From contig CAZEXP010000006.1 of the NCBI GenBank assembly GCA_964516845.1, forward strand, positions 16,503 to 80,502: a stretch of DNA of 64,000 nucleotides. Direction: 5' to 3'. Both the position numbers and the translations under genes were made by a program. This document shows, piece after piece, positions 4,058 to 62,641 of the stretch. Each line of letters opens with the position of its first letter. Position 1 is the first letter of the stretch. The notes under the pieces were generated by a model. The model saw only the letters and a program-made list of their open reading frames with translations. It was not told the origin of the DNA and searched no databases. The stretch comes from an uncultured bacterium. Its GTDB lineage: Bacteria > Joyebacterota > Joyebacteria > Joyebacterales > Joyebacteraceae.

Positions 4058-5375
4058 CCAGCGAACATGGACACCGTTTGCCTATCGCGTCTATCGATTC
4101 GCGACATGGGCCGTCTGGTGCCTGGTGTGGGTGGGCCTGCGCGTTGCGGGGCTGAAGAGCCGGGAGTGGCGCGAGCGACTCGGGAACGTTCAGGACTCGC
4201 CGCAGGGGGCCGTCTGGGTCCACGCCGCATCCGTCGGCGAGGTCGGTGCCGCGCTCCCGCTCGTCCGCGAGCTGTCGTCGCGCGGATGCGACGTGCGCGT
4301 GACCGTTGTGACCCCGGCCGGCGTCCGCATTGCCCGGACGTCGCTGCCGGAAAGCATCCCCGTGTGTTTCGCGCCGCTCGACTTCGTCGCCGTCACCAGG
4401 CGCGCCCTGCGCGCCACGCGCCCGTCGCTGATCATCCTCATCGAGACCGAGCTCTGGCCGAATCTCCTGTTCGAGGCGAGGGCCTGCGGTGTCCCTGTGG
4501 TGATGGCGAACGCGCGCCTGTCGGAGCGGAGTCTCTCGCGCTATCGTTCGAAGGGGTCGCCGCTGCGCGGTGTGGCGCAGCTCATTCGAGCCGCGGTCTG
4601 TCAGTCCGACGATGACGTGCGGCGTTTCGTCAGACTCGGGTTTGACCGGTCGAACGTGCGCTCCTTCGGCAGCACCAAGTTCGATTCGCTTGACGCTCCG
4701 TTGTCCGCCTCGAAGCGGGGGGAGCTGAGGAGGTCGTTCGGGTTCGATGCGGCTGCCCCCGTGCTGGTCTTCGGAAGCGTGAGGCCGCTGGAAGAGGCGG
4801 AGGTGGCCCGCGCTGTGGCACAGTGCCTGGCCGGTCTGGACCGCGCGCGCGCCGTGATCGCGCCGCGACACCTGGAGCGCGTCGCGCCGCTCATCGCGGC
4901 GCTCGGAGGCTCGGGCGTCGCCGGCGTTCGCAGAACCAGGCTCGTTCAGAGTGCGGCGGACGTGACGGAGCGTCCCGGCGTCGTCATCCTCGACACGACC
5001 GGCGAGCTCGGGGATGTGTACGCGATAGCCGACGCGGCGTTCGTGGGCGGGACGCTCGCGGACTACGGTGGGCACAACCCGCTCGAACCGGCGGCGCAGG
5101 GAGTGCCGGTCGTGCTCGGGCCGCACACGGAGACCTGTCGGGAGAACGCCGAGCTGCTGCTCGACGCAGGCGCGGCGGTGACGGTGTCGAATGGCGAGGA
5201 GCTTGCGGAAGAAATGGTCCGCATCGTGCGGGACGACGACGTTCGTCGGGCGATGTCGGAGGCTGCGCTCCGTGTGATGGAGGAGGGACGGGGAGCCTCC
5301 GCGCGCGCCGTCGAGTGGCTTGCCGGACTCGGACTGTTGCGGGTCGCCGGGCCCGGGGAAGGATCGACGTCGTGA
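4032..5375 (+). CDS. waaA: 3-deoxy-D-manno-octulosonic acid (Kdo) transferase WaaA/KdtA
   Basis: 447 aa. N-terminal GT30 domain with the conserved HAASVGE motif (VWVHAASVGEVGAALPLVREL) and C-terminal GT-B half. The start may be a few codons downstream (GTG 4050). Confidence 0.85.
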   Translation: MRRAGRVSNQRTWTPFAYRVYRFATWAVWCLVWVGLRVAGLKSREWRERLGNVQDSPQGAVWVHAASVGEVGAALPLVRELSSRGCDVRVTVVTPAGVRIARTSLPESIPVCFAPLDFVAVTRRALRATRPSLIILIETELWPNLLFEARACGVPVVMANARLSERSLSRYRSKGSPLRGVAQLIRAAVCQSDDDVRRFVRLGFDRSNVRSFGSTKFDSLDAPLSASKRGELRRSFGFDAAAPVLVFGSVRPLEEAEVARAVAQCLAGLDRARAVIAPRHLERVAPLIAALGGSGVAGVRRTRLVQSAADVTERPGVVILDTTGELGDVYAIADAAFVGGTLADYGGHNPLEPAAQGVPVVLGPHTETCRENAELLLDAGAAVTVSNGEELAEEMVRIVRDDDVRRAMSEAALRVMEEGRGASARAVEWLAGLGLLRVAGPGEGSTS

Positions 5376-6544
5376 CCCGCCCGGAAAGGACTGCGCCGAC
5401 CGGTGCGCCGGCGAGCGCGACACCCTCGTTGAGACGACGCAGCGCTTCGGCGTGGTGGCGCGATGTCGCCTACGCCCGAACGGATGTGCGCCCGCCCGGC
5501 TTGTATGCGGTCTGGTTCCTCGTGTTCTGCTCGGTCGTCTACGGGATCATCTCGTTCCTGGCGATGCGCCTCCGGGCGCGTGGAGCGGTCAGCGCGACGG
5601 TCCCCGTCATCTCGGTAGGGAACCTCGTTGTCGGTGGCACCGGCAAGACACCACTCGTGGTCTATCTTGCGCGGATGCTCGTGAGCGATGGTCACCGGGT
5701 CGTGGTCGTCAGCCGGGGCTACGGACGGGCCGGGCGGACGCCCGTCATCGTCTCGCGGGGCGACCGGGCGCTGGTCGGGTGGCGCGAGGCGGGTGATGAG
5801 CCCTCGCTTATCTCCATGCTGGCTCGCGGCGCCGGAGTGGTCGTCGCCTCTCGGCGGTCGGAAGGCGTGCGCGTCGCGGTGGAAAAGCTCCGGGCCGGTG
5901 TTATACTTCTTGATGACGGCATGCAGCATGTGCAGCTTGCCCGCGATCTGGATATCGTCGCGGTCGACGCACGCTCGCCGCTCGGGAACGGTCATTTGCT
6001 CCCGGCCGGTCCTCTTCGGGAACATCCGCTCGGTGTCATGAGGGCGGGGCTCATCGTCGCGACGCGGTGCGACCGGGCCGGAGGTGCGGCGGACGTGCGG
6101 CGGACCGTGGGTTCGCTTGCCCCCGGTATCCCGATCGTCGAGACGAGAATGCGTCTGGCCGAGCTCTGGGACGTCTCGACGGAGCGCCCCGTCAGGGCGG
6201 CCGACATCCGCGGTGGAACGGCGTTCGCGGTGGCCGGGATCGCCGATCCTGACGACTTCAGGGAGACGCTGCGCGAACTCGGCTTCCACGTTGTCGGTCT
6301 GCACGCGTTCGCCGACCACCACGAGTTCACGGACGACGACATCGCCGGTCTCGATGAGGAGCTGGACGAATTCGGGGCGAGTGTCGTCCTCACGACGGAG
6401 AAGGACGCGGTCCGGCTCCGTGGCTGGCGTCCGCGCGTGCCGCTCGTCGCCGTCGGGATCGACATCGAAGTGACGCGGGGCGAGAGCCTGGTGCGCGACG
6501 CGCTCAGACGCGCGATCGCGCGGGGAGAACGAGATGACGCTTGA
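5372..6544 (+). CDS. lpxK: Tetraacyldisaccharide 4'-kinase LpxK
   Basis: P-loop VPVISVGNLVVGGTGKTP and the LpxK C-terminal region. Candidate GTG start overlaps the waaA stop (GTGA); the true start could be downstream (e.g. 5486). The annotated 573-aa ORF from 4823 is out of frame over waaA and is not real. Confidence 0.8.
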   Translation: MTRPERTAPTGAPASATPSLRRRSASAWWRDVAYARTDVRPPGLYAVWFLVFCSVVYGIISFLAMRLRARGAVSATVPVISVGNLVVGGTGKTPLVVYLARMLVSDGHRVVVVSRGYGRAGRTPVIVSRGDRALVGWREAGDEPSLISMLARGAGVVVASRRSEGVRVAVEKLRAGVILLDDGMQHVQLARDLDIVAVDARSPLGNGHLLPAGPLREHPLGVMRAGLIVATRCDRAGGAADVRRTVGSLAPGIPIVETRMRLAELWDVSTERPVRAADIRGGTAFAVAGIADPDDFRETLRELGFHVVGLHAFADHHEFTDDDIAGLDEELDEFGASVVLTTEKDAVRLRGWRPRVPLVAVGIDIEVTRGESLVRDALRRAIARGERDDA

Positions 6545-7460
6545 GGAATACGGAGGTCTGTCGACCGAGGAACTGTCGGAACGGATCCGCCGGTCGAAGG
6601 AGGAGAAGCGGGCGGTCATCCTGGGCCACAACTACCAGGTGCCGGAGGTGCAGGTGCTCGCCGATCACCTTGGCGATTCGCTGAGGCTGGCGCAGCTCGC
6701 GACCGAGACCGATGCTGAGCTCATCGTTCTCTGCGGTGTGTGGTTCATGGCGGAAAGCGCGAAGATCCTCAATCCGGACCGACGCGTCATCATCCCGTCA
6801 AGGGACGCGGGCTGTCCAATGGCCGAGATGGCTACCGCCGAGGGCGTTGTCAGGCTCAAACGGCGGCATCCGGGCGTCCCCGTCGTCAGCTACGTCAATA
6901 CGTCCGCGGAGGTCAAGGCTGTCAGCGACGTCTGCTGCACGTCGGCCAATGCGGTCAGGATCGTCGAGGCCGTCGAGGGCGACACGGTCATCTTCGTTCC
7001 CGACAGGAACCTCGGCGCGTACGTGGCCTCGAAGACCGGGAAGAACGTCATTCTCTGGCAGGGGCACTGCTACGTGCACAACATGTTCGTTCCGGAGGAC
7101 ATCGAACTCGCCCGCGGCGAGCATCCCGGTGTTCCCGTGGTCGTCCATCCCGAATCGCCGCCCGACGTCATCGCGCGGGCCGAGTTCGTGGCGTCGACCG
7201 GAGGCATGATGAAGCTCGCCGAGGAATACGACGAACTCATCGTCGGGACGGAGATCGGACTCATCGAGAGAATGAATCGGGAGTTTCCCGAGAAGCGCTT
7301 CTATCCGCTCTCGGCGTTCGCGGTCTGCCGCACTATGAAGATGACGGACCTTCCTCGGCTCGCGTGGGCGCTCGAGCACGAGGAGTACGAGGTGACGGTG
7401 CCCGAGGACATCCGTCGGGGCGCGGAGCGCGCGCTCGCGCGTATGCTCGAGCTCTCCTGA
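6534..7460 (+). CDS. nadA: Quinolinate synthase NadA
   Basis: 308 aa. Motifs ILGHNYQ, CGVWFMAESAKIL and VSYVNTSAEVKA are typical of NadA. The ATG overlaps the lpxK stop by 11 nt. Confidence 0.9.
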   Translation: MTLEEYGGLSTEELSERIRRSKEEKRAVILGHNYQVPEVQVLADHLGDSLRLAQLATETDAELIVLCGVWFMAESAKILNPDRRVIIPSRDAGCPMAEMATAEGVVRLKRRHPGVPVVSYVNTSAEVKAVSDVCCTSANAVRIVEAVEGDTVIFVPDRNLGAYVASKTGKNVILWQGHCYVHNMFVPEDIELARGEHPGVPVVVHPESPPDVIARAEFVASTGGMMKLAEEYDELIVGTEIGLIERMNREFPEKRFYPLSAFAVCRTMKMTDLPRLAWALEHEEYEVTVPEDIRRGAERALARMLELS

Positions 7461-7483
7461 GCCGGGCGTGGGGGAGGCATGAC

Positions 7484-9088
7484 GTGGAGAGGTCCGACTT
7501 CATCGTCGTCGGAAGCGGGATCGCCGGGCTGACGTTCGCTCTGAACGCGGCCGAGAGCGGGCGGGTCCTCATCGTCACGAAGAAGGACGACAAGGAGTCT
7601 GCCACGAATCTGGCGCAGGGCGGCATTGCCGCCGTCGTGGCGCGCGAGGATTCGTTCGATCGACATGTCGAGGACACACTTGCCGCCGGCGTTGGCCTCT
7701 GCAATCGCGAGGCCGTGGAGATCGCCGTCCGGGGTGGCCCGGACGCCGTGCGTCGCCTCACCGAGTGGGGGACTCACTTCTCCACGGAGACCGACAGCGC
7801 GGGCGGCACATCGCTCGCGCTTGGTCGAGAGGGCGGCCACTCCGAACGTCGCATCGTGCACGCGGCGGACATGACCGGACGCGAGATCGAGGCCGCGCTC
7901 CTCGGAGCGGTCGACCGGCATCCGAACATCGAGGTGCTCGAGGACCACATCGCGCTCGACCTCATCACGACGGGCGAGGGAGTGGACAAGGCCTGCGCCG
8001 GCGTCCAGGTGCTCGATGACCCCGCTGGCGAGGTGAAGACGCTCCTCGCGTCGGTGACGGTGCTCGCGACCGGCGGATGCGGACGCGTCTACCTCTACAC
8101 GACCAACCCCGATATCGCCACGGGCGACGGCATCGCCATGGCGTTTCGGGCGGGCGTCGCCGTGCGGAACATGGAATTCGTGCAGTTCCACCCGACCTGC
8201 CTCTATCATCCGGACGTTCGTTCGTTCCTTATCTCGGAGGCCGTCCGAGGCGAGGGAGCCGTGCTTCTGAGTCTCGCGGGCGAACGGATCATGGAGGGTG
8301 TCGATCCCAGGAAGGAACTCGCTCCGCGCGACATCGTTGCTCGGGCCATCGACCGGACCATGAAGCAGACCGGTGACAAGCATGTCTATCTCGACATCAC
8401 GCACGTCGCGCCCGAGCGTGTGACGGCGCGCTTCCCGGGCATCTCATCGCGTCTGATGGAACTCGGCATCGACATGACGAGCGAGCCGATCCCGGTCGTC
8501 CCGGCGGCGCACTATCTGTGCGGCGGTATCGAGGTCGACATGGACTGCCGAACCAGCCTCCCGGGTCTCTACGCATGCGGCGAGACCGCGCACACCGGGA
8601 TGCACGGGGCCAACCGTCTCGCGAGCAATTCCCTTCTCGAGGCGGTCGTCTTCAGTGAGCGTGCCGCGCGGCGCGCGACCGCCGAGCTTGCGGAGCGGCG
8701 TGCGGCTCGCGACGCCTCCGGCGACGTCGAGTGGGACGGCATGGGGGTCGGCCCGATTCCCGAGGGTGTGCTGATGGACTACAACTGGGACGTCGTGAGG
8801 CGTCTGATGTGGGACTACGTGGGCATCGTCCGGACGGAAAGGCGTCTCAGACTCGCGGTCGCGCGGATGGCCGCGATCAGACGCGAGGTCATGGATCTCT
8901 ACGCCCGGTACCCCGTCAACGCCGACATCCTCGAGCTTCGGAATATCTCGCTCGTCGGCGAACTCGTCATCCGTTGCGCGCTCGACCGGCGTGAATCCCG
9001 GGGGCTCCACTACCTGGAGGACCATCCCGACCGCGATGACGAGAACTACCTCCGCGACACCGTGATCCCGGGGGGGTCCGGGCTCTAG
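7484..9088 (+). CDS. nadB: L-aspartate oxidase NadB
   Basis: FAD-binding N-terminus DFIVVGSGIAGL and the fumarate-reductase/succinate-dehydrogenase flavoprotein fold. GTG start 6 nt after a GGGGGAGG Shine-Dalgarno. The upstream part of the 782-aa ORF (6740-7483) lies over nadA out of frame and is spurious. Confidence 0.88.
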   Translation: MERSDFIVVGSGIAGLTFALNAAESGRVLIVTKKDDKESATNLAQGGIAAVVAREDSFDRHVEDTLAAGVGLCNREAVEIAVRGGPDAVRRLTEWGTHFSTETDSAGGTSLALGREGGHSERRIVHAADMTGREIEAALLGAVDRHPNIEVLEDHIALDLITTGEGVDKACAGVQVLDDPAGEVKTLLASVTVLATGGCGRVYLYTTNPDIATGDGIAMAFRAGVAVRNMEFVQFHPTCLYHPDVRSFLISEAVRGEGAVLLSLAGERIMEGVDPRKELAPRDIVARAIDRTMKQTGDKHVYLDITHVAPERVTARFPGISSRLMELGIDMTSEPIPVVPAAHYLCGGIEVDMDCRTSLPGLYACGETAHTGMHGANRLASNSLLEAVVFSERAARRATAELAERRAARDASGDVEWDGMGVGPIPEGVLMDYNWDVVRRLMWDYVGIVRTERRLRLAVARMAAIRREVMDLYARYPVNADILELRNISLVGELVIRCALDRRESRGLHYLEDHPDRDDENYLRDTVIPGGSGL

Positions 9089-53547: not shown

Positions 53548-53622
53548 GCGGGAATAGCTCAGTGGTAGAGCGCCACCTTGCCAAGGTGGATGTCGCGGGT
53601 TCGAGCCCCGTTTCCCGCTCCA
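53548..53622 (+). tRNA. tRNA-Gly (GCC)
   Basis: Cloverleaf: acceptor GCGGGAA/TTCCCGC, anticodon loop TTGCCAA, T-loop GGTTCGAGC, 3' CCA encoded. Confidence 0.9.
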
Positions 53623-53669
53623 GACATATGTGGCAGGGGCTGGGCTTCACGGCCCCTGCCCGCACGATA

Positions 53670-53746
53670 CGGCGGCGTAGCCAAGTGGCTAAGGCAGTGG
53701 ATTGCAAATCCATGATCCCCCGGTTCGAATCCGGGCGCCGCCTCCA
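53670..53746 (+). tRNA. tRNA-Cys (GCA)
   Basis: Acceptor GGCGGCG/CGCCGCC, anticodon loop TTGCAAA, T-loop GGTTCGAAT, CCA encoded. Confidence 0.9.
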
Positions 53747-53824
53747 GAACATCACCGGGCCGGTGGCCGGATCCCGTGCGTCAGGCACGCGGGCACCGGC
53801 TGTCGGCCCGGCTCTTCTTCCGCC

Positions 53825-53913
53825 GCCGGGGTGGCGAAACTGGTAGACGCATCGGACTTAAAATCCGTCGGGTCTTTCGACCCATGCCGGTTCGAATCCG
53901 GCCCCCGGCACCA
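53825..53913 (+). tRNA. tRNA-Leu (TAA)
   Basis: Acceptor GCCGGGG/CCCCGGC, anticodon loop CTTAAAA, long variable arm, T-loop GGTTCGAAT, CCA encoded. Confidence 0.85.
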
Positions 53914-54065: not shown

Positions 54066-56210
54066 GTGCCCTTGGAAACGTATCGTCATGCATCGACCGC
54101 ACGTGTGGTCCAGCGTTCGCGTCCGGCGCCGAGGCCCCGCACCCGGGTGCTGTGCCGCGGGAGCGGGCGCGCGCGGACACTTGTGCTTCTCGCGTTGCTC
54201 GCGACGCTCGCGCTGACGCTGCCCTCGCCGGTCGAGGCCGCCTATCCGCTGATCGCCAACATATACTTCCCGGACCTGTCGACGGCGGACCTCGCTTCGC
54301 TGGCACGCTGGGATGTTCTGATCCTGCCGAAACGAGCGGCCGATGCCGACCTGTCCGAGCTGGCGACACTCAGGGCTCTCAACCCCGACATCAAACTGAT
54401 CGTGCACATGCCGGTCGGCTACCACGGCGACTGGACATGGCCGCCCATCAACGGCGATCTCGTCGCCGCACTCAATGCCAACGACTGGTGGCTCACGGAC
54501 ACCGCGGGCGCGCGGATGATGCTGACGTGCGGCGACGCCGTCCTCAACGAAACCCTCTGGTGTCCTGAGAACGGCGAGGGAGACCGGCTCTGCGACTGGA
54601 TGCCGGAGTACATCGCGGAACGGCTCGGTCCCGGCGGACCGTGGGATGGAGTATTCCTCGACTATTGCATGGACGACATCGCGTGGGTCAACAACGACAA
54701 CGCTCTCCCCGCTGACGCCGACCACGATGGGATCGCCGACGACCCCGCCGAACTCAACGCGGCGTGGCGCGCGGGTATGGAGATCCTGACGCTCAGGCTG
54801 CGGGAACTCGTTGGGAGCGAGTTCATCGTGACGACCAACGGAAACAACACCTTCTACGACCAGTGCAACGGCTCGACCCGTGAGGGGTTCCCTCACATGC
54901 ACGGGGAGTGGCTCGAGAACATGACGAACCCCGTGTGGGGTTACCAGGCCATCTGCACGAAGTTCCAGGGCCCGGTCCTCTCGACCGTCAACACGATGTG
55001 GGACGGTCCTGTCGAGGACGGGGAGCTGGTCCGCGATGATGCCTTCGAGAGGAAGTTCACTTTCACCTTCGCCAGTACGATGGTCTACGGCGATGGCTAC
55101 TACTCGTTCGATGGCGGAGAAGGACTGCCCGAGCACTCGCAGGACTGGTGGCACGATTGGTACGACGTGGACCTCGGCATGCCTCGTGGTCGGTCCGAGG
55201 AGGTCGTCATGAGCGCCAGATGGGTTGAGAACGCTCACATGGTCCGCGCGCGGCGCTTCGAACGCGGTGTCGTCGTGGTGAACCCCACGACGGTCACGCA
55301 GACCGTACAGCTGCCCGGTGTCTACGCTCCACTCGATGGGTTCAATGGCCGGTTCTACCCGCATCACGCGATGCGTACGAGCGTGGCCGTCGGCCGTCAA
55401 TCGGGCGTGTTGCTCGTGGGGCCGGGTCAGCTGCCGCTGATGCAGGCCGGGGTGAACTGGACGCGAGGCGATGCGGACGCGGTGACGCTGACGTGGGAGC
55501 CCGTGGACGGAGCCGCGAGCTACAGCGTGTACAGGTCGCACCGGCCGGAGGGGACCTTGAACCCGGCATACCTGGAGGCGACGGTGCAGACGGCGTCGTT
55601 CGTCGACACGCTGGATGCGTGGGAATCCGCGTTCTACCGCATCGCTCCGATCGACGAGATCGGGTGTGAAGGACCGCTCTCGGGGATCGTGGTGATCAGG
55701 CCCGGGCGGGCCGCGGGCAGGATCGACGAGAGCGACAGCGGGCTTGATTCCGACCTGGATGACTCCGGGCGGGCGGATGGGACCGGGATCGTTGACGGGA
55801 CAGACGAAGCGCGTGTGGACGAAGAGTACCCGTGGGGTTGCACCGTGGACGTCGACGGGGCGGTGGAGCCGCGCGGTGATAGCAGCGCGTCGGAGAGGGA
55901 CGAAGTCGCGGGTCCGGTCAGGCTCGTCGGCGTGAGCCCGAACCCCGCGCTCTGTCTGACGCGCGTCGTCTTCCACATCGATCCTGGATCCCCGCCCGGG
56001 GGAGAACCGGTCGTGAGGATCTATGACATCAGAGGCCGACTGGTCTACGAGTCGACCGACGGCCGGGCGCGGTCGGGAAGCTTGAACGTCGTCGAGTGGG
56101 ATCTGAAGGACAGGCGGGGGTCCCGCGTGCCCGCCGGATGCTACCTGGTGGCCGTTGAGGGAGTCGGCGAGCCCGCGCGGGGCAAGGTCGTCGTGATCCC
56201 GGAGAACTAG
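54066..56210 (+). CDS. Secreted glycoside-hydrolase-like (TIM-barrel GHL-type) protein with Fn3-like domain and T9SS-type C-terminal sorting domain (paralog A)
   Basis: Likely true start GTG 54147 (signal peptide VLCRGSGRARTLVLLALLATLALTLPSPVEA). The N-domain (ANIYFPDL...DWMPEYIAER...FLDYCMDDIAW) resembles hypothetical glycosyl-hydrolase-like families. An Fn3-like segment VTLTWEPVDGAASYSVYRS follows, then an acidic linker. C-terminus ...RIYDIRGRLVYES...GCYLVAVEGVGEPARGKVVVI resembles Por_Secre_tail/FlgD-Ig-type CTDs. Confidence 0.6.
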   Translation: MPLETYRHASTARVVQRSRPAPRPRTRVLCRGSGRARTLVLLALLATLALTLPSPVEAAYPLIANIYFPDLSTADLASLARWDVLILPKRAADADLSELATLRALNPDIKLIVHMPVGYHGDWTWPPINGDLVAALNANDWWLTDTAGARMMLTCGDAVLNETLWCPENGEGDRLCDWMPEYIAERLGPGGPWDGVFLDYCMDDIAWVNNDNALPADADHDGIADDPAELNAAWRAGMEILTLRLRELVGSEFIVTTNGNNTFYDQCNGSTREGFPHMHGEWLENMTNPVWGYQAICTKFQGPVLSTVNTMWDGPVEDGELVRDDAFERKFTFTFASTMVYGDGYYSFDGGEGLPEHSQDWWHDWYDVDLGMPRGRSEEVVMSARWVENAHMVRARRFERGVVVVNPTTVTQTVQLPGVYAPLDGFNGRFYPHHAMRTSVAVGRQSGVLLVGPGQLPLMQAGVNWTRGDADAVTLTWEPVDGAASYSVYRSHRPEGTLNPAYLEATVQTASFVDTLDAWESAFYRIAPIDEIGCEGPLSGIVVIRPGRAAGRIDESDSGLDSDLDDSGRADGTGIVDGTDEARVDEEYPWGCTVDVDGAVEPRGDSSASERDEVAGPVRLVGVSPNPALCLTRVVFHIDPGSPPGGEPVVRIYDIRGRLVYESTDGRARSGSLNVVEWDLKDRRGSRVPAGCYLVAVEGVGEPARGKVVVIPEN

Positions 56211-56408: not shown

Positions 56409-58466
56409 ATGGCGAGAGTGCGAGTGGACTGCGGTCGAGATGAGCGCTACTACACCGAAGCCGCCGTGCGCGTGGTGGTCGTTTCGTTGCTGTGCATAGC
56501 GCTCGTCTGCGCGGTGCTCGCGGCGTCGGCGACGACGGTGTCGGCTCGCACGCCGGGGTCCTACCCGCGGCTTGCCAATATCTACTTCCCGACGCTCGCC
56601 GGAGCCGACCTGGAGGCGCTGGCACGATACGACGTGCTCGTGCTTCCCGCGCGTGGCGAACAACTGACGCGCGAGGAGCTGGCCACCCTGCGGGATCTCA
56701 ACCCGAGCATCACGCTTCTGGCGCACATGCCGATCGGATATCACGGCGATTGGGGCTCGCCCAGCATCTTCAGCGATGTCATGGACGCGGCGAACGAGCA
56801 CAACTGGTGGTTGCGCGACCGACTCGGGCAGCGTGTCCGGATGGACTTCGGTGACTATCTTCTGAATCTCACGACGTGGTGCCCGCCTGACGAGGACGGA
56901 AGGACATTCGGCAGCTGGATGGCCAAGCACATCGCCGACCGTCTGGCTCCCGGAGGTCTCTGGGACGGCGTCTACCTCGACTACTGCATGGACGATATCG
57001 CGTGGGCCGGCAGCGGCTTGACGTGGGGCCTCGACGCCGACAACAACGCCCAGGCCGATGATCCCGCTGAGCTGAACGAAGCGTGGCGTGCGGGAACGGA
57101 GATGCTCGTCTCGAAGCTCAGGGAGTACGTCGGTCAGGACTACCTTATCGTGACGAACGGGAACAACACCGTGTACGAGGCGTGCGACGGAGGGACACGT
57201 GAGGACTTCCCGAGCATGCACGGGGGCTGGCTCGAGAACGTGACCGCGGCCGGGTACGGCTACAGGGCAATGCAGTCGCGCTACCGCAAGCCGTCCGTGA
57301 ACATCATCAACACGATCTGGTACGGGTCGGCGGATCCGGAGGCGGACATGCCGGCTGTCGCGGCCGAGCAGAAGTTCCGGTACACGCTCGCCACGACACT
57401 CGTGTACGGCGACGGCTACTACTCCTTCGACGGAGGGAGGGGGCTGCCGCATCACTGCCAGACATGGTGGCACGAGCTCTACGACATGGACCTAGGCGTT
57501 CCGGTGGAGCGCGGAGCAGCGGTCGAGGCGTGGCCGGGCGAATCCCCATGGATCGAGAACGGCGACATGGTGGCGCAGAGGCGCTTCACCAGGGGGATGG
57601 TCCTTGTCAACCCGAGCACCTGCATGCAGCACGTCGAACTCGGCGGCGTCTACTACCCGGCCGAGAGCTGGAACGGGAGCTTCTACCCGTACGAGCGGAC
57701 CACATCGACAGCCGCGGTCACCTACTGCAACGGTGAATTCTACGCCGGGAGAGGGAGCGTGCTCTCGGCGGTGATGGACATCTCGTTCAAGGAAGGAGCC
57801 GACGGCGATCTGCTCCTTGCGTGGAGCAAGGTCGCCGGTGCCGTGGCGTACGCCGTCTATCGGAGCGACGGGCGGCTTGGCGGGGACTGCGGCGAGCTGG
57901 TGGCCATCGTCGACGGTCCGCAGTTCCGGGATGATGAGAGCAACATGAGGAGCGACGTCAGGTACAGCGTCTCGCCGATCGACGACCTGCTGTGCGAGGG
58001 ACGTCCCTCGCTTCCCGTGAGCGCCGTGGACGCGTCCGGCAGCGGGATGGTCGAGGCATCCATGTCCGATCTGCCGCATGACCGTGTCGCGGCCGCGCAG
58101 ATGATGGAGCCGCAGGTCTACGGGGGACGCCTCTCCGACGGGACCGGGGACCACTCCGAGCAGGGCGCGTGTCCCTCGGTGCTTCACGGCTCGGCGCCCA
58201 ACCCGGCCGCGCACGAGACCAGGATCAGCTTCACCTTGGGCGACGATGAGCGCTGGGGCGGCGGAAGACCCACGACGGTGACCGTGTTCGATGTTCGCGG
58301 CAGGGTCGTGCGGACGCTCGTCAACGACCGGCTCCCGGCCGGACGGCACGAGGTGCGCTGGGACCTCCGCGGGGATTCCGGCCAGCGTGTGGCGGCCGGC
58401 TGTTACCTGTTCGCGCTCTCCGCGGGCGAAGAGACCCTCCACGGCAAGCTTCTCGTCGTCAACTAG
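56409..58466 (+). CDS. Secreted glycoside-hydrolase-like protein with Fn3-like domain and T9SS-type C-terminal sorting domain (paralog B)
   Basis: 685 aa. N-terminal signal/anchor VRVVVVSLLCIALVCAVLAASATTVSA. The catalytic-like domain is collinear with paralog A and roughly half identical by eye (ANIYFPTL...YLDYCMDDIAW...FPSMHGGWLENVT). C-terminus ...TVFDVRGRVVRTLVND...GCYLFALSAGEETLHGKLLVVN. Confidence 0.6.
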   Translation: MARVRVDCGRDERYYTEAAVRVVVVSLLCIALVCAVLAASATTVSARTPGSYPRLANIYFPTLAGADLEALARYDVLVLPARGEQLTREELATLRDLNPSITLLAHMPIGYHGDWGSPSIFSDVMDAANEHNWWLRDRLGQRVRMDFGDYLLNLTTWCPPDEDGRTFGSWMAKHIADRLAPGGLWDGVYLDYCMDDIAWAGSGLTWGLDADNNAQADDPAELNEAWRAGTEMLVSKLREYVGQDYLIVTNGNNTVYEACDGGTREDFPSMHGGWLENVTAAGYGYRAMQSRYRKPSVNIINTIWYGSADPEADMPAVAAEQKFRYTLATTLVYGDGYYSFDGGRGLPHHCQTWWHELYDMDLGVPVERGAAVEAWPGESPWIENGDMVAQRRFTRGMVLVNPSTCMQHVELGGVYYPAESWNGSFYPYERTTSTAAVTYCNGEFYAGRGSVLSAVMDISFKEGADGDLLLAWSKVAGAVAYAVYRSDGRLGGDCGELVAIVDGPQFRDDESNMRSDVRYSVSPIDDLLCEGRPSLPVSAVDASGSGMVEASMSDLPHDRVAAAQMMEPQVYGGRLSDGTGDHSEQGACPSVLHGSAPNPAAHETRISFTLGDDERWGGGRPTTVTVFDVRGRVVRTLVNDRLPAGRHEVRWDLRGDSGQRVAAGCYLFALSAGEETLHGKLLVVN

Positions 58467-58601: not shown

Positions 58602-59153
58602 ATGAACGGTGTAGACCTCATTATCCTGATCATCCTGGCCATCGGGCTCATCTCCGGACTCGCGCGGGGCATCATCCGGACGCTCTTTGGTCTCGCGGCG
58701 CTGGTTCTCGGCGTCGTCACGGCTGCCGGGAGCTTCGGCTATGTTGCGTCAACCGTGTTCGGATTCGTGTCCGATGAACGGGCGGCCGAGATACTCGCGT
58801 TCATTCTCGTGTTCCTGATCGTATTCACCGTCATCGCCTTCATCGGGCGGCTCATCGCGAAGGTGATCAAGATCGCGGCTCTCGGGTGGGTCGATCGGCT
58901 CGCCGGCGGCATCGCGGGGATCGTCCTGGCGTCGATCGTGGCGGGCACGCTCCTGCTGCTCGCGGTTCTGGGCGGATTCCACAAGACCCCGGTTCTGGCG
59001 CTCTCAACCATGGCGCCCAGGGTGCTCGGTGTGACCGACGCGATCGTCACGCTCGTTCCGGCCGGCGTACGCGCAGGATTCGAAGAGGAGTACCGCTCGC
59101 TTCGGGGCGAGTGGGAAGAGGCCCGGCTTCGCGCCCGCACGCGTCTCGTATGA
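58602..59153 (+). CDS. cvpA: CvpA-family (colicin V production) membrane protein
   Basis: 183 aa. N-terminal DLIILIILAIGLISGLARG and four TM helices typical of CvpA. Confidence 0.8.
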   Translation: MNGVDLIILIILAIGLISGLARGIIRTLFGLAALVLGVVTAAGSFGYVASTVFGFVSDERAAEILAFILVFLIVFTVIAFIGRLIAKVIKIAALGWVDRLAGGIAGIVLASIVAGTLLLLAVLGGFHKTPVLALSTMAPRVLGVTDAIVTLVPAGVRAGFEEEYRSLRGEWEEARLRARTRLV

Positions 59154-59154
59154 G

Positions 59155-61041
59155 ATGAAAGGACGACGGATGACCGACGAGTCGAGTCCTGACCTTCAGG
59201 GAGAACAGCCGGCGGAGACGCAGACCGGGAGCGCCGAAGATCAGTCCGACGGACCGGAAGTGGATGTCCTCGGGCAGATCGGCGTGGATGTCACGGCGCT
59301 CGCTGAGGCCGAGGGTGAGCCGCAGCCTGACCTCTGGGCGGATCAGACGCGGCGCGTCATGGAGGTTCTCGGCAAGCGGGAGCGTCACGCGGCGATCCTT
59401 GTCGGTCCGCACGGTGTCGGCAAGCGGGGACTCATCTTCGCGCTCGCCGGGAGGCTTCGGGCGAAGGGCGGGCTGCCTCGGCTCCGCGGACGCAGGCTGA
59501 TCGAGCTTCCGTTCCATCGCGTTCTCGCCGGCGCCCGTCAGCAGGGCGACTTCGAGCGCATCGTCTTTGTGGCCATGCGACAGGCCGCCGCGCGTGACGA
59601 CGTGATCCTCTTCCTCGACAACTACACGAGTTTCCTCGGCGTCACGAGGAGCGGACAGGCGCTTCTCGACGCCTCGTACGCGATCGAGATGGCCCTCCAT
59701 CAGCCGGGGCTCTACCTTCTGGGCAGCAGCACTCCCGAACTCTACCGCGCCGCCACGGCGAAACTTCCGTGGCTCGAGCGGGCCATGACGGTGGTCGACG
59801 TGCCGGAGCCGTCGCGCGACGCGGCGATCGAGCTACTGGAGCGCGCGTCGGTCGGTCTCGCCGAGTACCACGGCGTGAGCATCGGGTCCGATGTGCTCGA
59901 GGCCGCGGTCGATCTGTCCGGGTACTTCGTCAGGGAACGCGTGCTGCCGGGGAAGGCAATGGAGCTCCTCGACGAGGCAGCCAGCAAGGCCGTTCTTCGC
60001 GGCGGTCCCGGCGGGGCCATCGAGGTCCATGACATCACCAGCGCGCTCTCGGAGTGGGTCCGCATCCCGCCCGAGAAGCTGGAGGGCGCCGTCAACAGCG
60101 AGCTGCTCGAACTCGAGACGGTTCTGGAGCGTCGGGTCAAGGGGCAGTCGCGGTGCATCCGGAAGATAGCCGATGTGATCCGGGTCTCGCGGCTCGGTCT
60201 CGACGCGAGGCCCCAGCGCCCGGACGGCGTGTTTCTGTTCGTCGGTCCGCCGGGCGTCGGCAAGAGCGAACTCGCCAGGGCGCTCGCCGACGAGCTCTAC
60301 GGAGGTTCATCGCGGTTGTTCGAGTTCAACATGACCCGCTATTCGGAGGACGACGGCGCGGCGCGTCTGTTTGGTCTGTCGCTCGGTGATGTTGAGCACG
60401 AGGGTGACCTGACCCGGGTCGTCGTGCGGTGGCCGCACTCGGTTATCGTGTTCGAGCAGGTCGAGCGCACGCACCGGGACGTGGCGGTCGCCCTCATGCA
60501 GGTGTTTCGCGAGGGGTACGGCGTTGACGGGCAGGGGAGGCCCATCGAGTTCGGGGACACCGTCATCATCATGACATCGAATTCCGAGAATCTCCTGCCT
60601 TCGGCCGACGAGAACGGGGCCGTCGGGTTCAGTCAGTCATCGCAGGCGAGCGAGGACCGGTATCTGCGTGAGATCCGCACGGCCGTCGAGAAGTTCTTCC
60701 CGCCCGAGTTTCTCGAGGGGATCGACGAGGTGCTGCTGTTCGATCGGCTGACCGATTCGGCGCTCCACGACATCGTAAGACTGCGCCTCGACGACGTCCG
60801 GGAGCGGCTCGGCGAGCGCGATGTGGCGCTCGATGTTACGGATGACGCCGTCGCGAAGATCGCCGAGAAGGGCGCGAGCCGCGAGTATGGCGCCCGACAT
60901 CTTGGTCGAACGGTCGAGGGGCTTGTCCTCAAGCCGATCGCGCGGTTCCTTCTGGCGAACCCGGAGGCCAGGACGATCCGGGTCCACGTCGTCGAAGGCG
61001 ATATCGAAGTGAGTGGGGCTCCCGCGAACGGAGGGGCGTAG
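59155..61041 (+). CDS. Clp/Hsp100-family double-AAA+ protein with substituted catalytic residues in both NBDs (predicted pseudo-ATPase)
   Basis: 628 aa. Acidic disordered N-terminus. NBD1 Walker A is GPHGVGKRG (Arg in place of Thr/Ser) and Walker B is ILFLDN (Glu replaced by Asn). NBD2 Walker A GPPGVGKSE is intact, but Walker B is VIVFEQVE (DE replaced by EQ). PEFLEGID replaces the PEFxNRID arginine-finger region. The sensor-2 GAR motif is retained (EYGARHLGR). Confidence 0.7.
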   Translation: MKGRRMTDESSPDLQGEQPAETQTGSAEDQSDGPEVDVLGQIGVDVTALAEAEGEPQPDLWADQTRRVMEVLGKRERHAAILVGPHGVGKRGLIFALAGRLRAKGGLPRLRGRRLIELPFHRVLAGARQQGDFERIVFVAMRQAAARDDVILFLDNYTSFLGVTRSGQALLDASYAIEMALHQPGLYLLGSSTPELYRAATAKLPWLERAMTVVDVPEPSRDAAIELLERASVGLAEYHGVSIGSDVLEAAVDLSGYFVRERVLPGKAMELLDEAASKAVLRGGPGGAIEVHDITSALSEWVRIPPEKLEGAVNSELLELETVLERRVKGQSRCIRKIADVIRVSRLGLDARPQRPDGVFLFVGPPGVGKSELARALADELYGGSSRLFEFNMTRYSEDDGAARLFGLSLGDVEHEGDLTRVVVRWPHSVIVFEQVERTHRDVAVALMQVFREGYGVDGQGRPIEFGDTVIIMTSNSENLLPSADENGAVGFSQSSQASEDRYLREIRTAVEKFFPPEFLEGIDEVLLFDRLTDSALHDIVRLRLDDVRERLGERDVALDVTDDAVAKIAEKGASREYGARHLGRTVEGLVLKPIARFLLANPEARTIRVHVVEGDIEVSGAPANGGA

Positions 61042-61048
61042 CGTGCGG

Positions 61049-62473
61049 ATGCTCATCGGCGGTGAGCCGGCGGCCGCGGAACACGAGTTCGAGGTTCACG
61101 ACCCCTACGACGGTTCTCTGATCGATTCCGTCCCGCTCGCCCGCGAAAGGGACGTCGCGGCCGCGCTCGATGCCGCGGAGCGCGGCGCAGCGCTCATGGA
61201 AGCGCTTCCCAGGGTCGAACGAGCGGGCATCCTCGGCAGGACCGCCGCGGCGATCGAACGACGGACGGAGGAGCTGGCGGCGCTGCTCAGTCGTGAGGTG
61301 GGGAAGACGGTCCGTGAGGCCCGGGGCGAGGTGGCCCGGGCGGTCCAGACCTTCGTTCTCTCCGCCGAGGAGGCGCGGCGGCTCGCGGGCGAGATCGTCC
61401 CCTTCGACGGCGCTCCGACCGGGACGGACCGGTTTGGGTTCACGCTGCGCGTCCCTGTCGGGATCGTCGTCGCCATCACGCCCTTCAACTTCCCGCTCAA
61501 TCTCGCCGCACACAAGGTCGGCCCTGCGATCGCCGCCGGGAACGCGGTCATTCTCAAGCCGGCGAGCGCAACGCCGCTGACCGACATCGTTCTCGGGGAG
61601 GTCCTCGTGGAGAGCGGGCTTCCCCGCGAGGCCATCTCCGTGGTGACCGGTCCGGGTGGTACGGTCGGTCGAGCGCTGGTGACCGACCCGAGACCGCGCG
61701 TCGTGACCTTCACGGGAAGCGCGGATGTCGGTCGGACCATCATGGCGAGCGCCGGGCTCAAACGCTGCGCGATGGAACTCGGGTCGAACTCCGCCGTGAT
61801 CGTGGAGGCGGACGGTGATCTGGAGGCGGCCGCGGAGCGGTCGATGCGGGGCGCTTTCGCTCTCGCCGGGCAGGTCTGCATCTCGGTGCAGCGCGCGCTC
61901 GTCCACGAGTCGGTCTATGACGAATTCGTCGAGCGTGCCGTCGCCGTGACGCGGGGCCTGGTCGTGGGAGATCCGAAGGACGAGCGGACGGACGTTGGTC
62001 CGATGATCGATGAGTCCGAAGCCGCGCGGGCCGAGTCGTGGACCGCCGAGGCTGTCGCGGCGGGCGCCGTGGTCCGGACAGGCGGGACGCGGCGTCGGAG
62101 TCTGCTGGCTCCGACCATCCTGACGGACGTCCCCGGTGACGCGCGCGTATGGCGTGATGAGGCATTCGCACCGGTGGTCGTGGTGCGACCCTACGCAAGC
62201 TTCGATGAGGCGATCGCGCTCGTCAACGAGTCCCGCTACGGGCTTCAGGCGGGCGTCTACACGGAGGACCTGGAGGTCGCGCTCCGCGCGGCGCACGAGA
62301 TCCGCTGTGGCGGGGTGATGATCAACGATGTTCCCACGTACCGGGTCGATCTGATGCCCTACGGGGGCGAGAAGGACAGCGGCCTGGGGCGGGAGGGCCC
62401 CGGATACGCAGTCGAGGAGATGTCGGAGCTGCGCGTCGTGGGCATTCGACGGCGCCCACGGGTTTCCTCTTGA
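61049..62473 (+). CDS. NAD(P)-dependent aldehyde dehydrogenase family protein
   Basis: ALDH motifs FTGSADVGRTIM, catalytic ELGSNSAVIV (Glu) and FALAGQVCISVQR (Cys). GTG 61043 is an alternative start. Confidence 0.85.
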   Translation: MLIGGEPAAAEHEFEVHDPYDGSLIDSVPLARERDVAAALDAAERGAALMEALPRVERAGILGRTAAAIERRTEELAALLSREVGKTVREARGEVARAVQTFVLSAEEARRLAGEIVPFDGAPTGTDRFGFTLRVPVGIVVAITPFNFPLNLAAHKVGPAIAAGNAVILKPASATPLTDIVLGEVLVESGLPREAISVVTGPGGTVGRALVTDPRPRVVTFTGSADVGRTIMASAGLKRCAMELGSNSAVIVEADGDLEAAAERSMRGAFALAGQVCISVQRALVHESVYDEFVERAVAVTRGLVVGDPKDERTDVGPMIDESEAARAESWTAEAVAAGAVVRTGGTRRRSLLAPTILTDVPGDARVWRDEAFAPVVVVRPYASFDEAIALVNESRYGLQAGVYTEDLEVALRAAHEIRCGGVMINDVPTYRVDLMPYGGEKDSGLGREGPGYAVEEMSELRVVGIRRRPRVSS

Positions 62474-62563
62474 CAGGCAACCGGATACGTCGTATCTTCA
62501 TGTGTTCAGAAATCGAGCACTGTGGGCGAGCTCAAGCTCCGCCTGAACGCTGGATTCTGATTC

Positions 62564-62641
<78 letters not shown>

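Follow-up and report, generated by a model that had tools for sequence, protein, structure and literature searches.

What is left of a Clp/Hsp100 protein, a textbook ATP-driven threading machine, once the residues that drive and grip have been replaced? The question is raised by a gene at 59155..61041 on the + strand of a 64-kb window (the whole stretch of DNA analysed here, 64,000 nucleotides of contig CAZEXP010000006.1 from an uncultured bacterium), whose product, derived from ClpC, has two AAA+ modules and neither N-domain nor M-domain. An earlier note, made from the letters of this DNA alone, had placed an open reading frame (ORF) exactly there, as we do, and had read its product as an Hsp100 protein that binds ATP and cannot hydrolyse it. 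Profile alignment, conservation across a family of relatives, purifying selection and an intact fold support that reading, with loss of ATPase activity predicted from the substituted residues. The family appears to have shed both motors and both substrate-gripping loops and to have kept a nucleotide pocket, a ring-forming domain and a docking loop. The account that we put first, tentatively, is that it would form a nucleotide-stabilised, non-motor ring that docks on ClpP via its VGF loops and serves as a cap or regulator.

Fold, active sites and pore loops

The ORF runs for 628 aa from ATG 59155. The likely start of translation is ATG 59170, which gives 623 aa and has AAGGA six nt upstream; the gene caller chose it for an identical protein in the database, and the equivalent Met is where orthologues start (MTDES/MIDES). 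Residue numbers below follow the 628-aa numbering unless the 623-aa numbering is stated. Base composition is uniform around the ORF (~65-70% GC). Long ORFs in other frames or on the opposite strand overlap 59155-61041, for example 59047-59700 (-) and 60929-62296 (-); they have no family support and are the usual by-product of ~67% GC.

The layout of two nucleotide-binding domains (NBD1 and NBD2) that the earlier note had likened to ClpA, ClpB and ClpC is borne out by Pfam domains, the ClpC alignment and a structural model, which agree. Pfam identifies the AAA_lid_9 domain of NBD1 at residues 221-282 (59815..60000, +; E 5e-14), AAA_2 at residues 355-525 (E 3e-29) and a C-terminal ClpB_D2-small domain, which includes sensor 2, at residues 532-603 (60748..60963, +; E 4e-18). 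NBD1 has no significant AAA-family Pfam match over it; it aligns to ClpC with a phmmer domain E-value of 2e-31. NBD2 follows directly after the lid with no M-domain coiled coil, and neither Clp_N (PF02861), UVR nor M-domain is matched by Pfam at E<=0.1 anywhere in the window protein. In phmmer, the solved proteins nearest to it in sequence are ClpC of B. subtilis and of S. aureus (5.6e-92), with ClpB and ClpA next. The ClpC alignment jumps from ClpC residue 406 to 463, and because 407-462 are skipped the M-domain is precisely absent; the ClpA alignment is one unbroken stretch, query 27-601 against ClpA 159-722. An AlphaFold2 model from a 42-sequence alignment has a mean predicted local distance difference test (pLDDT) score of 87.1 and a predicted template modelling (pTM) score of 0.78, and falls below pLDDT 50 only at residues 1-28, 480-490 and 620-623 (623-aa numbering). 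Its best PDB neighbours in Foldseek are ClpC protomers of ClpC-ClpP complexes (9gi1, 9rai, 9if4 and 8xon); the top ClpC structural matches have TM scores of ~0.65-0.73 at 29-33% identity, and ClpB and ClpA are also among the top matches.

The protein therefore has the two tandem AAA+ modules of the class I Clp/Hsp100 fold. It has neither the Clp_N or zinc-finger N-domain nor the coiled-coil M-domain that mark ClpC and ClpE. ClpB is not known to have a ClpP-docking loop, and a long M-domain without such a loop marks ClpB/Hsp104; here the M-domain is absent and an xGF loop is present. The NCBIfam equivalogs all match with scores that reach no more than roughly a third of the curated cut-offs, outside membership in each case: ClpA at 345 vs 993, ClpB (TIGR03346) at 355 vs 1232, ClpV (TssH) at 316 vs 885, ClpG at 288 vs 1900 and ClpK at 274 vs 1900.

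Motif positions were assigned in three ways: by phmmer against B. subtilis ClpC, in a 121-sequence MAFFT alignment, and with a profile hidden Markov model (HMM) built from 47 canonical Clp proteins only. Family counts refer to the 78 full-length members in the MAFFT alignment. Against the canonical-only HMM the query forms a single domain of 500 bits, and at every catalytic motif the posterior probability is maximal and indels are absent, which rules out an offset alignment in which the canonical residues are present and shifted. The motifs quoted in the earlier note (GPHGVGKRG, ILFLDNYTSF, GPPGVGKSE, VIVFEQVER and PEFLEGIDE) are all found where it put them, and the profile alignment places the substitutions at Walker A, Walker B and Arg-finger positions as it had done by eye. 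When orthologues were checked for the same substitutions, the pattern recurred in the 78 full-length relatives.

In NBD1, the Walker A motif (59404..59430, +) reads GPHGVGKRG against a canonical GEPGVGKT. Lys90 is kept, as it is in 78/78 members, and the Mg-coordinating Thr has become Arg91, a replacement found in 74/78. The invariant GxxGxGK suggests that nucleotide or phosphate is still held, with a conserved Arg taking the place of the Mg-binding Thr. At Walker B (ILFLDNYTSF, 59605..59634, +), FIDE has become FLDN and the catalytic Glu is Asn; across the family the Asp is kept in 13 of 78 proteins and the Glu in 2, and since most members have no Walker B acidic pair, NBD1 is predicted to be hydrolysis-dead. 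The sensor-1 Thr is retained in the window protein. The Arg-finger region (59770..59793, +) reads WLERAMTV against a canonical ALERRFQP, so that ERRF becomes ERAM and the second Arg is Ala; this second Arg survives in a single member (1/78) and the first in 24/78. In the pore loop (AGARQQGDFE, 59527..59556, +), the canonical K-Y-R is R-Q-Q, with Gln in the place of Tyr; no member has Tyr at this position (0/78), and 68/78 have Q or E.

The Walker A motif of NBD2 (GPPGVGKSE, 60244..60270, +) is intact, as the earlier note had stated, with the Lys in 78/78 members and Ser or Thr after it in 78/78. Also kept are sensor 1 (IIMTSNS, 60565..60585, +), whose Asn476 is found in 65/78, and the GAR of sensor 2 (EYGARHLGR, 60883..60909, +), whose Arg is found in 78/78 and contributes to nucleotide binding in related proteins (PMC3940203). 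Retention of the two P-loop lysines and of sensors 1 and 2 makes ATP binding plausible. The claim that every hydrolytic element is altered was thus too broad: all of the substitutions it named are real, and the Walker A lysines, the NBD1 sensor-1 Thr, and the NBD2 sensor-1 Asn and sensor-2 Arg are retained.

The rest of the NBD2 active site has not fared so well. At Walker B (VIVFEQVER, 60442..60468, +), LLDEIE has become VFEQVE, in which Glu replaces the Asp (70/78 in the family) and Gln replaces the catalytic Glu; E->Q at this position is the standard laboratory 'trap' substitution. Glu is found at the catalytic position in none of the 78 members, which have His (50), Gln (21), Asn (5) or, in the other 2, Ala or Ser, and the variation among His, Gln and Asn argues against a substitute catalytic base. 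In the Arg-finger region (PEFLEGIDE, 60703..60729, +; canonical pEFlNRiDe), FINRID is FLEGID, with Gly for Arg; the family has Gly in 77/78 and Arg in 0/78. In the segment RLFEFNMTRY (60313..60342, +; canonical alIRlDMsEy), the equivalent of T. thermophilus ClpB R621, whose role is described in PMC3940203, is Glu, and the Asp after it is Asn (D392N) in all 78 members. Having lost the R621 equivalent as well as its Walker B Glu and trans Arg finger, NBD2 should bind ATP yet hardly hydrolyse it.

The NBD2 pore loop, FGLSLGDVEHEGDLT (60370..60414, +), stands against a canonical iGapPGYvGydeGGqLt and has Asp in place of the Tyr. PGYVGY has become LGDVEH, with two residues fewer in the loop and acidic residues at three of its positions. 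The pore position is Asp in 54 members and Glu in 24, with Tyr in 0/78, and positions 412, 414 and 418 of the former loop are acidic in 100%, 96% and 100% of the family, so the central channel is predicted to be lined by carboxylates rather than aromatics. With the aromatics of both pore loops gone, the window protein is predicted to be unable to grip or thread polypeptide in the canonical manner. The set of motifs expected of a functional unfoldase is not found: the combination of Walker A GK[TS] with Walker B hhhhDE in both NBDs is broken, and the trans Arg fingers (RR in NBD1, NR in NBD2) and aromatic pore loops are missing.

In place of the Clp N-domain stands an acidic N-terminal tail of 30 aa (59170..59259, +) with 9 D/E and 0 K/R, disordered in the model (pLDDT <50 over residues 1-28 in the 623-aa numbering of the AlphaFold2 model). 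The long, acidic and disordered N-terminus described before is therefore acidic and of low model confidence, and it is short here. Across the family the tail has a median of 49 aa and a median net charge of about -8, is of low complexity and is unconserved in sequence; the family proteins are very acidic overall, with a mean net charge of -28.

The docking loop and the family that keeps it

A flexible loop, ENGAVGFSQS (60610..60639, +; residues 486-495), carries V-G-F at residues 490-492, and this tripeptide aligns residue for residue with the VGF of ClpC both in phmmer and in the canonical-only HMM. The Gly and the Phe of the xGF loop are each present in 78/78 members, with V, L, M or A in the first position; among 30 canonical comparators xGF is missing in 4, two of those ClpB-sized. 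The VGF loop is the sole internal segment of the model with pLDDT <50, which points to a flexible surface loop. By sequence, then, the protein has the feature expected of ClpP-binding Clp ATPases, a flexible AAA2 loop with (L/I/V)-G-(F/L). Such loops dock Clp ATPases into the hydrophobic (H-) pockets of ClpP (PMC8745299); ClpC and ClpE carry VGF in AAA2, and a VGF->GGR change abolishes the interaction of ClpE with ClpP (PMC13125188). That a tripeptide in a disordered loop has stayed absolutely conserved while catalytic residues drifted is best explained by a retained interaction, for which ClpP is the obvious candidate partner. The earlier 'scaffold' reading had the core of the matter, a pseudo-ATPase, and had missed the loss of both pore tyrosines, the absence of N- and M-domains and the retained VGF loop; the invariant loop narrows 'scaffold' to the more specific hypothesis of a non-motor ClpP cap, which rests on its selective retention.

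In a search of 5.8 billion proteins the family amounts to about 80 clusters (90% identity level), which score 446-1358 bits and are 52-100% identical to the query. These are followed by two intermediates at 41-42% identity, beyond which scores fall abruptly to those of canonical Clp proteins (<=331 bits). Compared in pairs, members of the family are 50-100% identical (median 58%). The sources recorded for the family are without exception 'Candidatus Eisenbacteria' or unclassified bacteria, and the named ones among 8 family loci in GTDB species representatives are all Eisenbacteria, so that as far as named records show the family is restricted to Candidatus Eisenbacteria. Public annotations of its members are generic ('AAA family ATPase', 'ClpA' or 'ClpC'). 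The same scan of GTDB representatives returned 5 distant Clp-like matches, four with canonical motifs (Zixibacteria, Cloacimonadota, Patescibacteria and Kuenenia). The fifth, at 5197-7770 of a locus in the Candidatus Paceibacterota metagenome-assembled genome JAQTPY010000002.1 (L018), is a Clp-like protein of 858 aa whose N-terminal region is hydrophobic and transmembrane-like, with an unusual NBD1 P-loop (GEAGSGRKS), an NBD2 pore loop without GYVG (GSPGEEGLLT) and Walker B DE in both NBDs.

The gene is under strong purifying selection: the ratio of nonsynonymous to synonymous substitution (dN/dS) is 0.08-0.09 by the Nei-Gojobori method against two orthologues at 86-88% identity. An identical protein is present in an independent assembly. 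A fold under purifying selection in which catalytic residues are consistently substituted is what defines a pseudo-enzyme, and both are found here.

The wider surroundings of the family were examined in an exhaustive phmmer scan of 1.84 billion representatives at 50% identity, in which the family is a single cluster (P0020). Next come three small clusters of short proteins, P0121 (41% identity), P0122 (36%) and P0123 (33%), and after them thousands of canonical Clp proteins. These sister clusters share with the family the G-K-R P-loop and Walker B loss of NBD1, the loss of both pore loops and of the NBD2 Arg finger, and the kept xGF. Their proteins have 606-638 aa and sensor 2 of the form GAH or GMR, and their NBD2 Walker B motifs are DE in P0079, P0080 and P0121, DG in P0122 and KE in P0123. 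The genes lie at L006 8001-9893 and L007 5465-7357 (P0079, P0080 and P0121), at L021 and L023 5882-7798 (P0122 and P0273) and at L022 342-2216 (P0123), in contexts that include heme-biosynthesis genes, TPR proteins, and a vWA protein with an extracytoplasmic function (ECF) sigma factor. In a neighbour-joining tree all of the degenerate proteins form one clade in 100/100 bootstraps, a grouping in which long-branch attraction is possible. The phmmer scan, the motif states of the sister clusters and the single clade in the tree indicate that the wider degenerate clade is rare, probably of single origin, and has probably undergone stepwise decay of NBD2. The DE-retaining sister group could, by analogy, be a Torsin-like latent ATPase.

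Three other, partly degenerate Clp relatives among the matches combine features in other ways. P0126 (728 aa) has a dead-looking NBD1 (GLGRR, VDG, no RR) and a fully canonical NBD2. P0087 (711 aa) and P0124 (1028 aa) have DD in NBD1 Walker B, VRC in the Arg-finger region and a VGY loop; P0087, which also carries a TPR-family Pfam match, has a sensor 2 (EYGARNLGR) equal to the family consensus, and that of P0124 (EYGARNLAR) is close to it.

A proposed non-motor ring and its rivals

How might such a protein work? In the proposed ClpP cap, nucleotide would be bound at least in NBD2 and probably in NBD1, and the protein would assemble into a ClpC-like ring, a prediction supported by the D2-small domain, which is invariant in the family and to which a passage of PMC5425593 that cites Mogk 2003 assigns a role in oligomerisation. 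The ring would hydrolyse ATP not at all or extremely slowly, as a natural counterpart of the double Walker-B 'trap'. Once ATP-bound, it would insert six VGF loops into the hydrophobic pockets of ClpP, and the cap would open or stabilise the ClpP gate for already-unfolded substrates, perhaps basic ones, which the acidic channel and tail might favour. Alternatively, the ring might compete with genuine unfoldases for ClpP. Nucleotide occupancy would perhaps act as an assembly switch. It is possible, if rather doubtful, that this is the first natural AAA+-derived and hydrolysis-independent ClpP cap, one that gates or blocks ClpP by nucleotide occupancy.

Several points weigh against a ClpP cap. 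ATP binding, ring assembly and ClpP binding are all things that we infer from sequence. The Thr->Arg change in the NBD1 Walker A might abolish nucleotide binding there and not just alter it. The region adjacent to the Arg finger also contacts ClpP in ClpC and ClpE (PMC13125188), and its R->G change here might weaken docking. Neither ClpP nor a canonical Clp ATPase is encoded in the 64-kb window, where ClpX and canonical ClpC are both missing, or in the flanks of the related loci examined; a tblastn comparison of the window with approximate sequences of E. coli ClpP and ClpX and with a ClpC1-like protein matched only the gene itself. The neighbouring cvpA and aldehyde dehydrogenase (aldh) genes offer no hint of proteolysis, and the xGF loop could be kept for another partner, as it would have to be if the cap proves untrue.

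These neighbours bear on the alternative that survives best, which we nonetheless regard as unlikely: a nucleotide-gated scaffold or holdase that works independently of ClpP, in which ATP binding would act only as a conformational or assembly switch and clients would be bound via the very acidic surface and the tail, perhaps as part of some process that involves CvpA and the aldehyde dehydrogenase, with the xGF loop a relic or re-recruited. The strong acidity of the protein and the conserved acidic character of its tail fit such a role, and no Clp protease genes lie near the loci examined. The genes, moreover, are tightly packed on one strand. A Colicin_V family membrane protein gene, cvpA (58602..59153, +), lies directly upstream and aldh (61043..62473, +) directly downstream, head to tail with the clp-like gene on the + strand, and no promoter-like or above-chance terminator-like site was found between the three; terminator-like matches within the clp-like gene are at chance level. 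The three are probably co-transcribed. The 1-nt gap to cvpA on which the earlier note had based translational coupling holds for ATG 59155; from the likely start at 59170 it is 16 nt, and in orthologues 9-71 nt, so coupling to cvpA is doubtful. The tightest junction is that with aldh, 1 nt here if its probable GTG start, 1 nt past the clp-like stop, is indeed GTG 61043, and 1-31 nt in orthologues. Read from GTG 61013, the longest ORF for aldh shares 29 nt with the end of the clp-like gene; GTG 61043 is preferred both by the gene caller and in alignments of the family.

The cvpA-clp-like-aldh arrangement is kept in the family down to 52% identity, as part of the order GT5, GHL15, cvpA, clp-like gene, aldh, tRNA, infC-rpmI-rplT, pheST, zapBA, mgsA. 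However, these genomes are syntenic over the entire 18 kb, infC-rpmI-rplT-pheST included, and because this entire housekeeping neighbourhood is conserved the adjacency alone is no proof of a functional link; it may reflect the synteny of a lineage rather than function. The cvpA adjacency is confined to the Eisenbacteria lineage, and the sister clusters have neither cvpA nor aldh as neighbours. A relic loop, for its part, would not remain invariant in 78/78 members, nor would it persist in sisters at 33-41% identity.

Further out in the same neighbourhood, tandem paralogues of about 700 aa with GHL15 (PF14885) and a C-terminal FlgD_ig-type domain (54066-56210 and 56409-58466, +) lie upstream of cvpA and after a GT5 glycogen-synthase-like gene, and 1-2 copies are found at this place in all Eisenbacteria loci examined. 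A tRNA Gly-Cys-Leu cluster is at 53548-53913. On the other side, a sigma-70-like site, TTGACA-17-TATCTT (62470-62498), precedes tRNA-Val(GAC) (62564-62641), which is just upstream of infC-rpmI-rplT, and infC-rpmI-rplT itself.

Might the protein instead be a regulatory or poison subunit that enters mixed hexamers with a canonical ClpC- or ClpA-type ATPase and tunes its activity? Parallels exist in ClpR within ClpP rings and in the inactive D1 rings or subunits of other AAA+ machines. The retained ClpC-like fold, with its D2-small and lid domains, would permit this, and loss of the Arg finger would silence the neighbouring site in a mixed ring; Clp-related AAA+ systems that depend on a cofactor do exist, for example Torsin with LAP1 (PMC5425593). 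We nevertheless consider it improbable: identity to any canonical Clp is only 29-35%, which makes compatible interfaces doubtful, the N-domain and M-domain of a partner would have no equivalent here, and no canonical Clp gene is adjacent in any locus examined.

Weaker still is the case for a working ATPase or unfoldase with non-canonical catalysis and a non-aromatic substrate grip, in which Glu434 would be the catalytic acid, or the His that most relatives have at 435 the base. The P-loop and sensors 1 and 2 of NBD2 are intact, an acidic Glu remains in its Walker B, the sister cluster P0079/P0121 keeps DE there, and some AAA+ proteins, such as Torsin, are very slow ATPases that need a cofactor (PMC5425593). 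Yet H, Q, N, A and S all occur at the catalytic position, a spread incompatible with any conserved base, Gly takes the place of the trans Arg finger in 77/78, the Arg equivalent to R621 has gone as well, both pore tyrosines are polar or acidic in 78/78, and NBD1 has no Walker B acidic pair in most members; this makes such activity very improbable. Finally, where so many catalytic residues are substituted together and NCBIfam scores fall far under the ClpA and ClpB cut-offs, one might suspect a pseudogene in decay, or a normal clpC distorted in assembly or annotation. This is refuted for practical purposes by a frame intact over 628 codons, an identical protein in an independent assembly, a confidently predicted fold, about 80 clusters with the same substitutions, and a dN/dS of 0.08-0.09 for the gene.

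Comparison with known systems

Among known proteins, ClpC and ClpC1 of B. subtilis, S. aureus and M. tuberculosis are most alike in architecture, with two AAA+ modules, AAA_lid_9, D2-small and an aligned VGF loop, and they have the NBD2 P-loop, sensor 1 and sensor 2 in common with the window protein. By contrast, the window protein is without Clp_N, M-domain, the Walker B catalytic Glu of both rings, Arg fingers and pore tyrosines, has Arg for Thr in the NBD1 Walker A, and is only ~30-33% identical. ClpA resembles it in the continuous NBD1-NBD2 layout without an M-domain and differs in having a ClpS-binding N-domain, active Walker B motifs, Arg fingers and pore tyrosines; its ClpP-docking tripeptide is IGL (PMC8745299).

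The closest analogy for a working mode is offered by Torsins with LAP1/LULL1, and it fits the DE-keeping sister cluster P0079/P0121 especially. Torsins are related to Clp/Hsp100 proteins, have neither an Arg finger nor aromatic pore loops, are extremely weak, cofactor-dependent ATPases, and are not thought to thread substrate (PMC5425593). They differ from the window protein in having a single AAA+ module, a kept Walker B Glu and an Arg finger donated by the cofactor, in residing in the lumen of the eukaryotic endoplasmic reticulum, and in having no ClpP loop. Since here the catalytic Glu is also missing, unlike in Torsin, trans-activation of the window protein is unlikely.

Engineered double Walker-B (DWB) traps of ClpB, ClpC and CLPC1 (E->A/Q) contain the same NBD2 E->Q as the window protein. 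These traps bind ATP, form stable hexamers and hardly hydrolyse, and the structures of DWB mutants (7abr and 6qs6) are among the fold matches of our model. The traps keep their pore loops and Arg fingers and so hold substrate, whereas the window protein has lost both. In the literature searched, we found no account of a Clp ATPase that is hydrolysis-dead and pore-less by nature and still has the ClpP loop, nor of an AAA+-derived, hydrolysis-dead ClpP cap. What the family may offer is a natural protein in which ATP binding and protease docking are separated from unfolding and translocation, with the sister clusters as a graded degeneration series for evolutionary and mechanistic study. If the ClpP cap is true, the passage from motor to regulator would be preserved in steps by their NBD2 Walker B states (DE, followed by DG or KE and lastly by E[H/Q]).

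Motor-less caps provide the last comparison. The 11S/PA28 and Bpa/PafE proteins are hydrolysis-independent caps or activators of the proteasome. On ClpP, the H-pockets are the site of action of the acyldepsipeptides (ADEP) and of IGF or VGF loops that have been grafted (PMC8745299). These molecules and folds are unrelated to the window protein; what would be shared is the concept that occupancy of a docking pocket alone changes the gating or activity of a protease. Should the family indeed cap ClpP, its members would be ClpP regulators of a new class and would give ADEP-like activation a natural point of comparison; they would stand beside the motor-less proteasome activators as their bacterial counterpart and would mimic, as proteins, the ADEP antibiotics.

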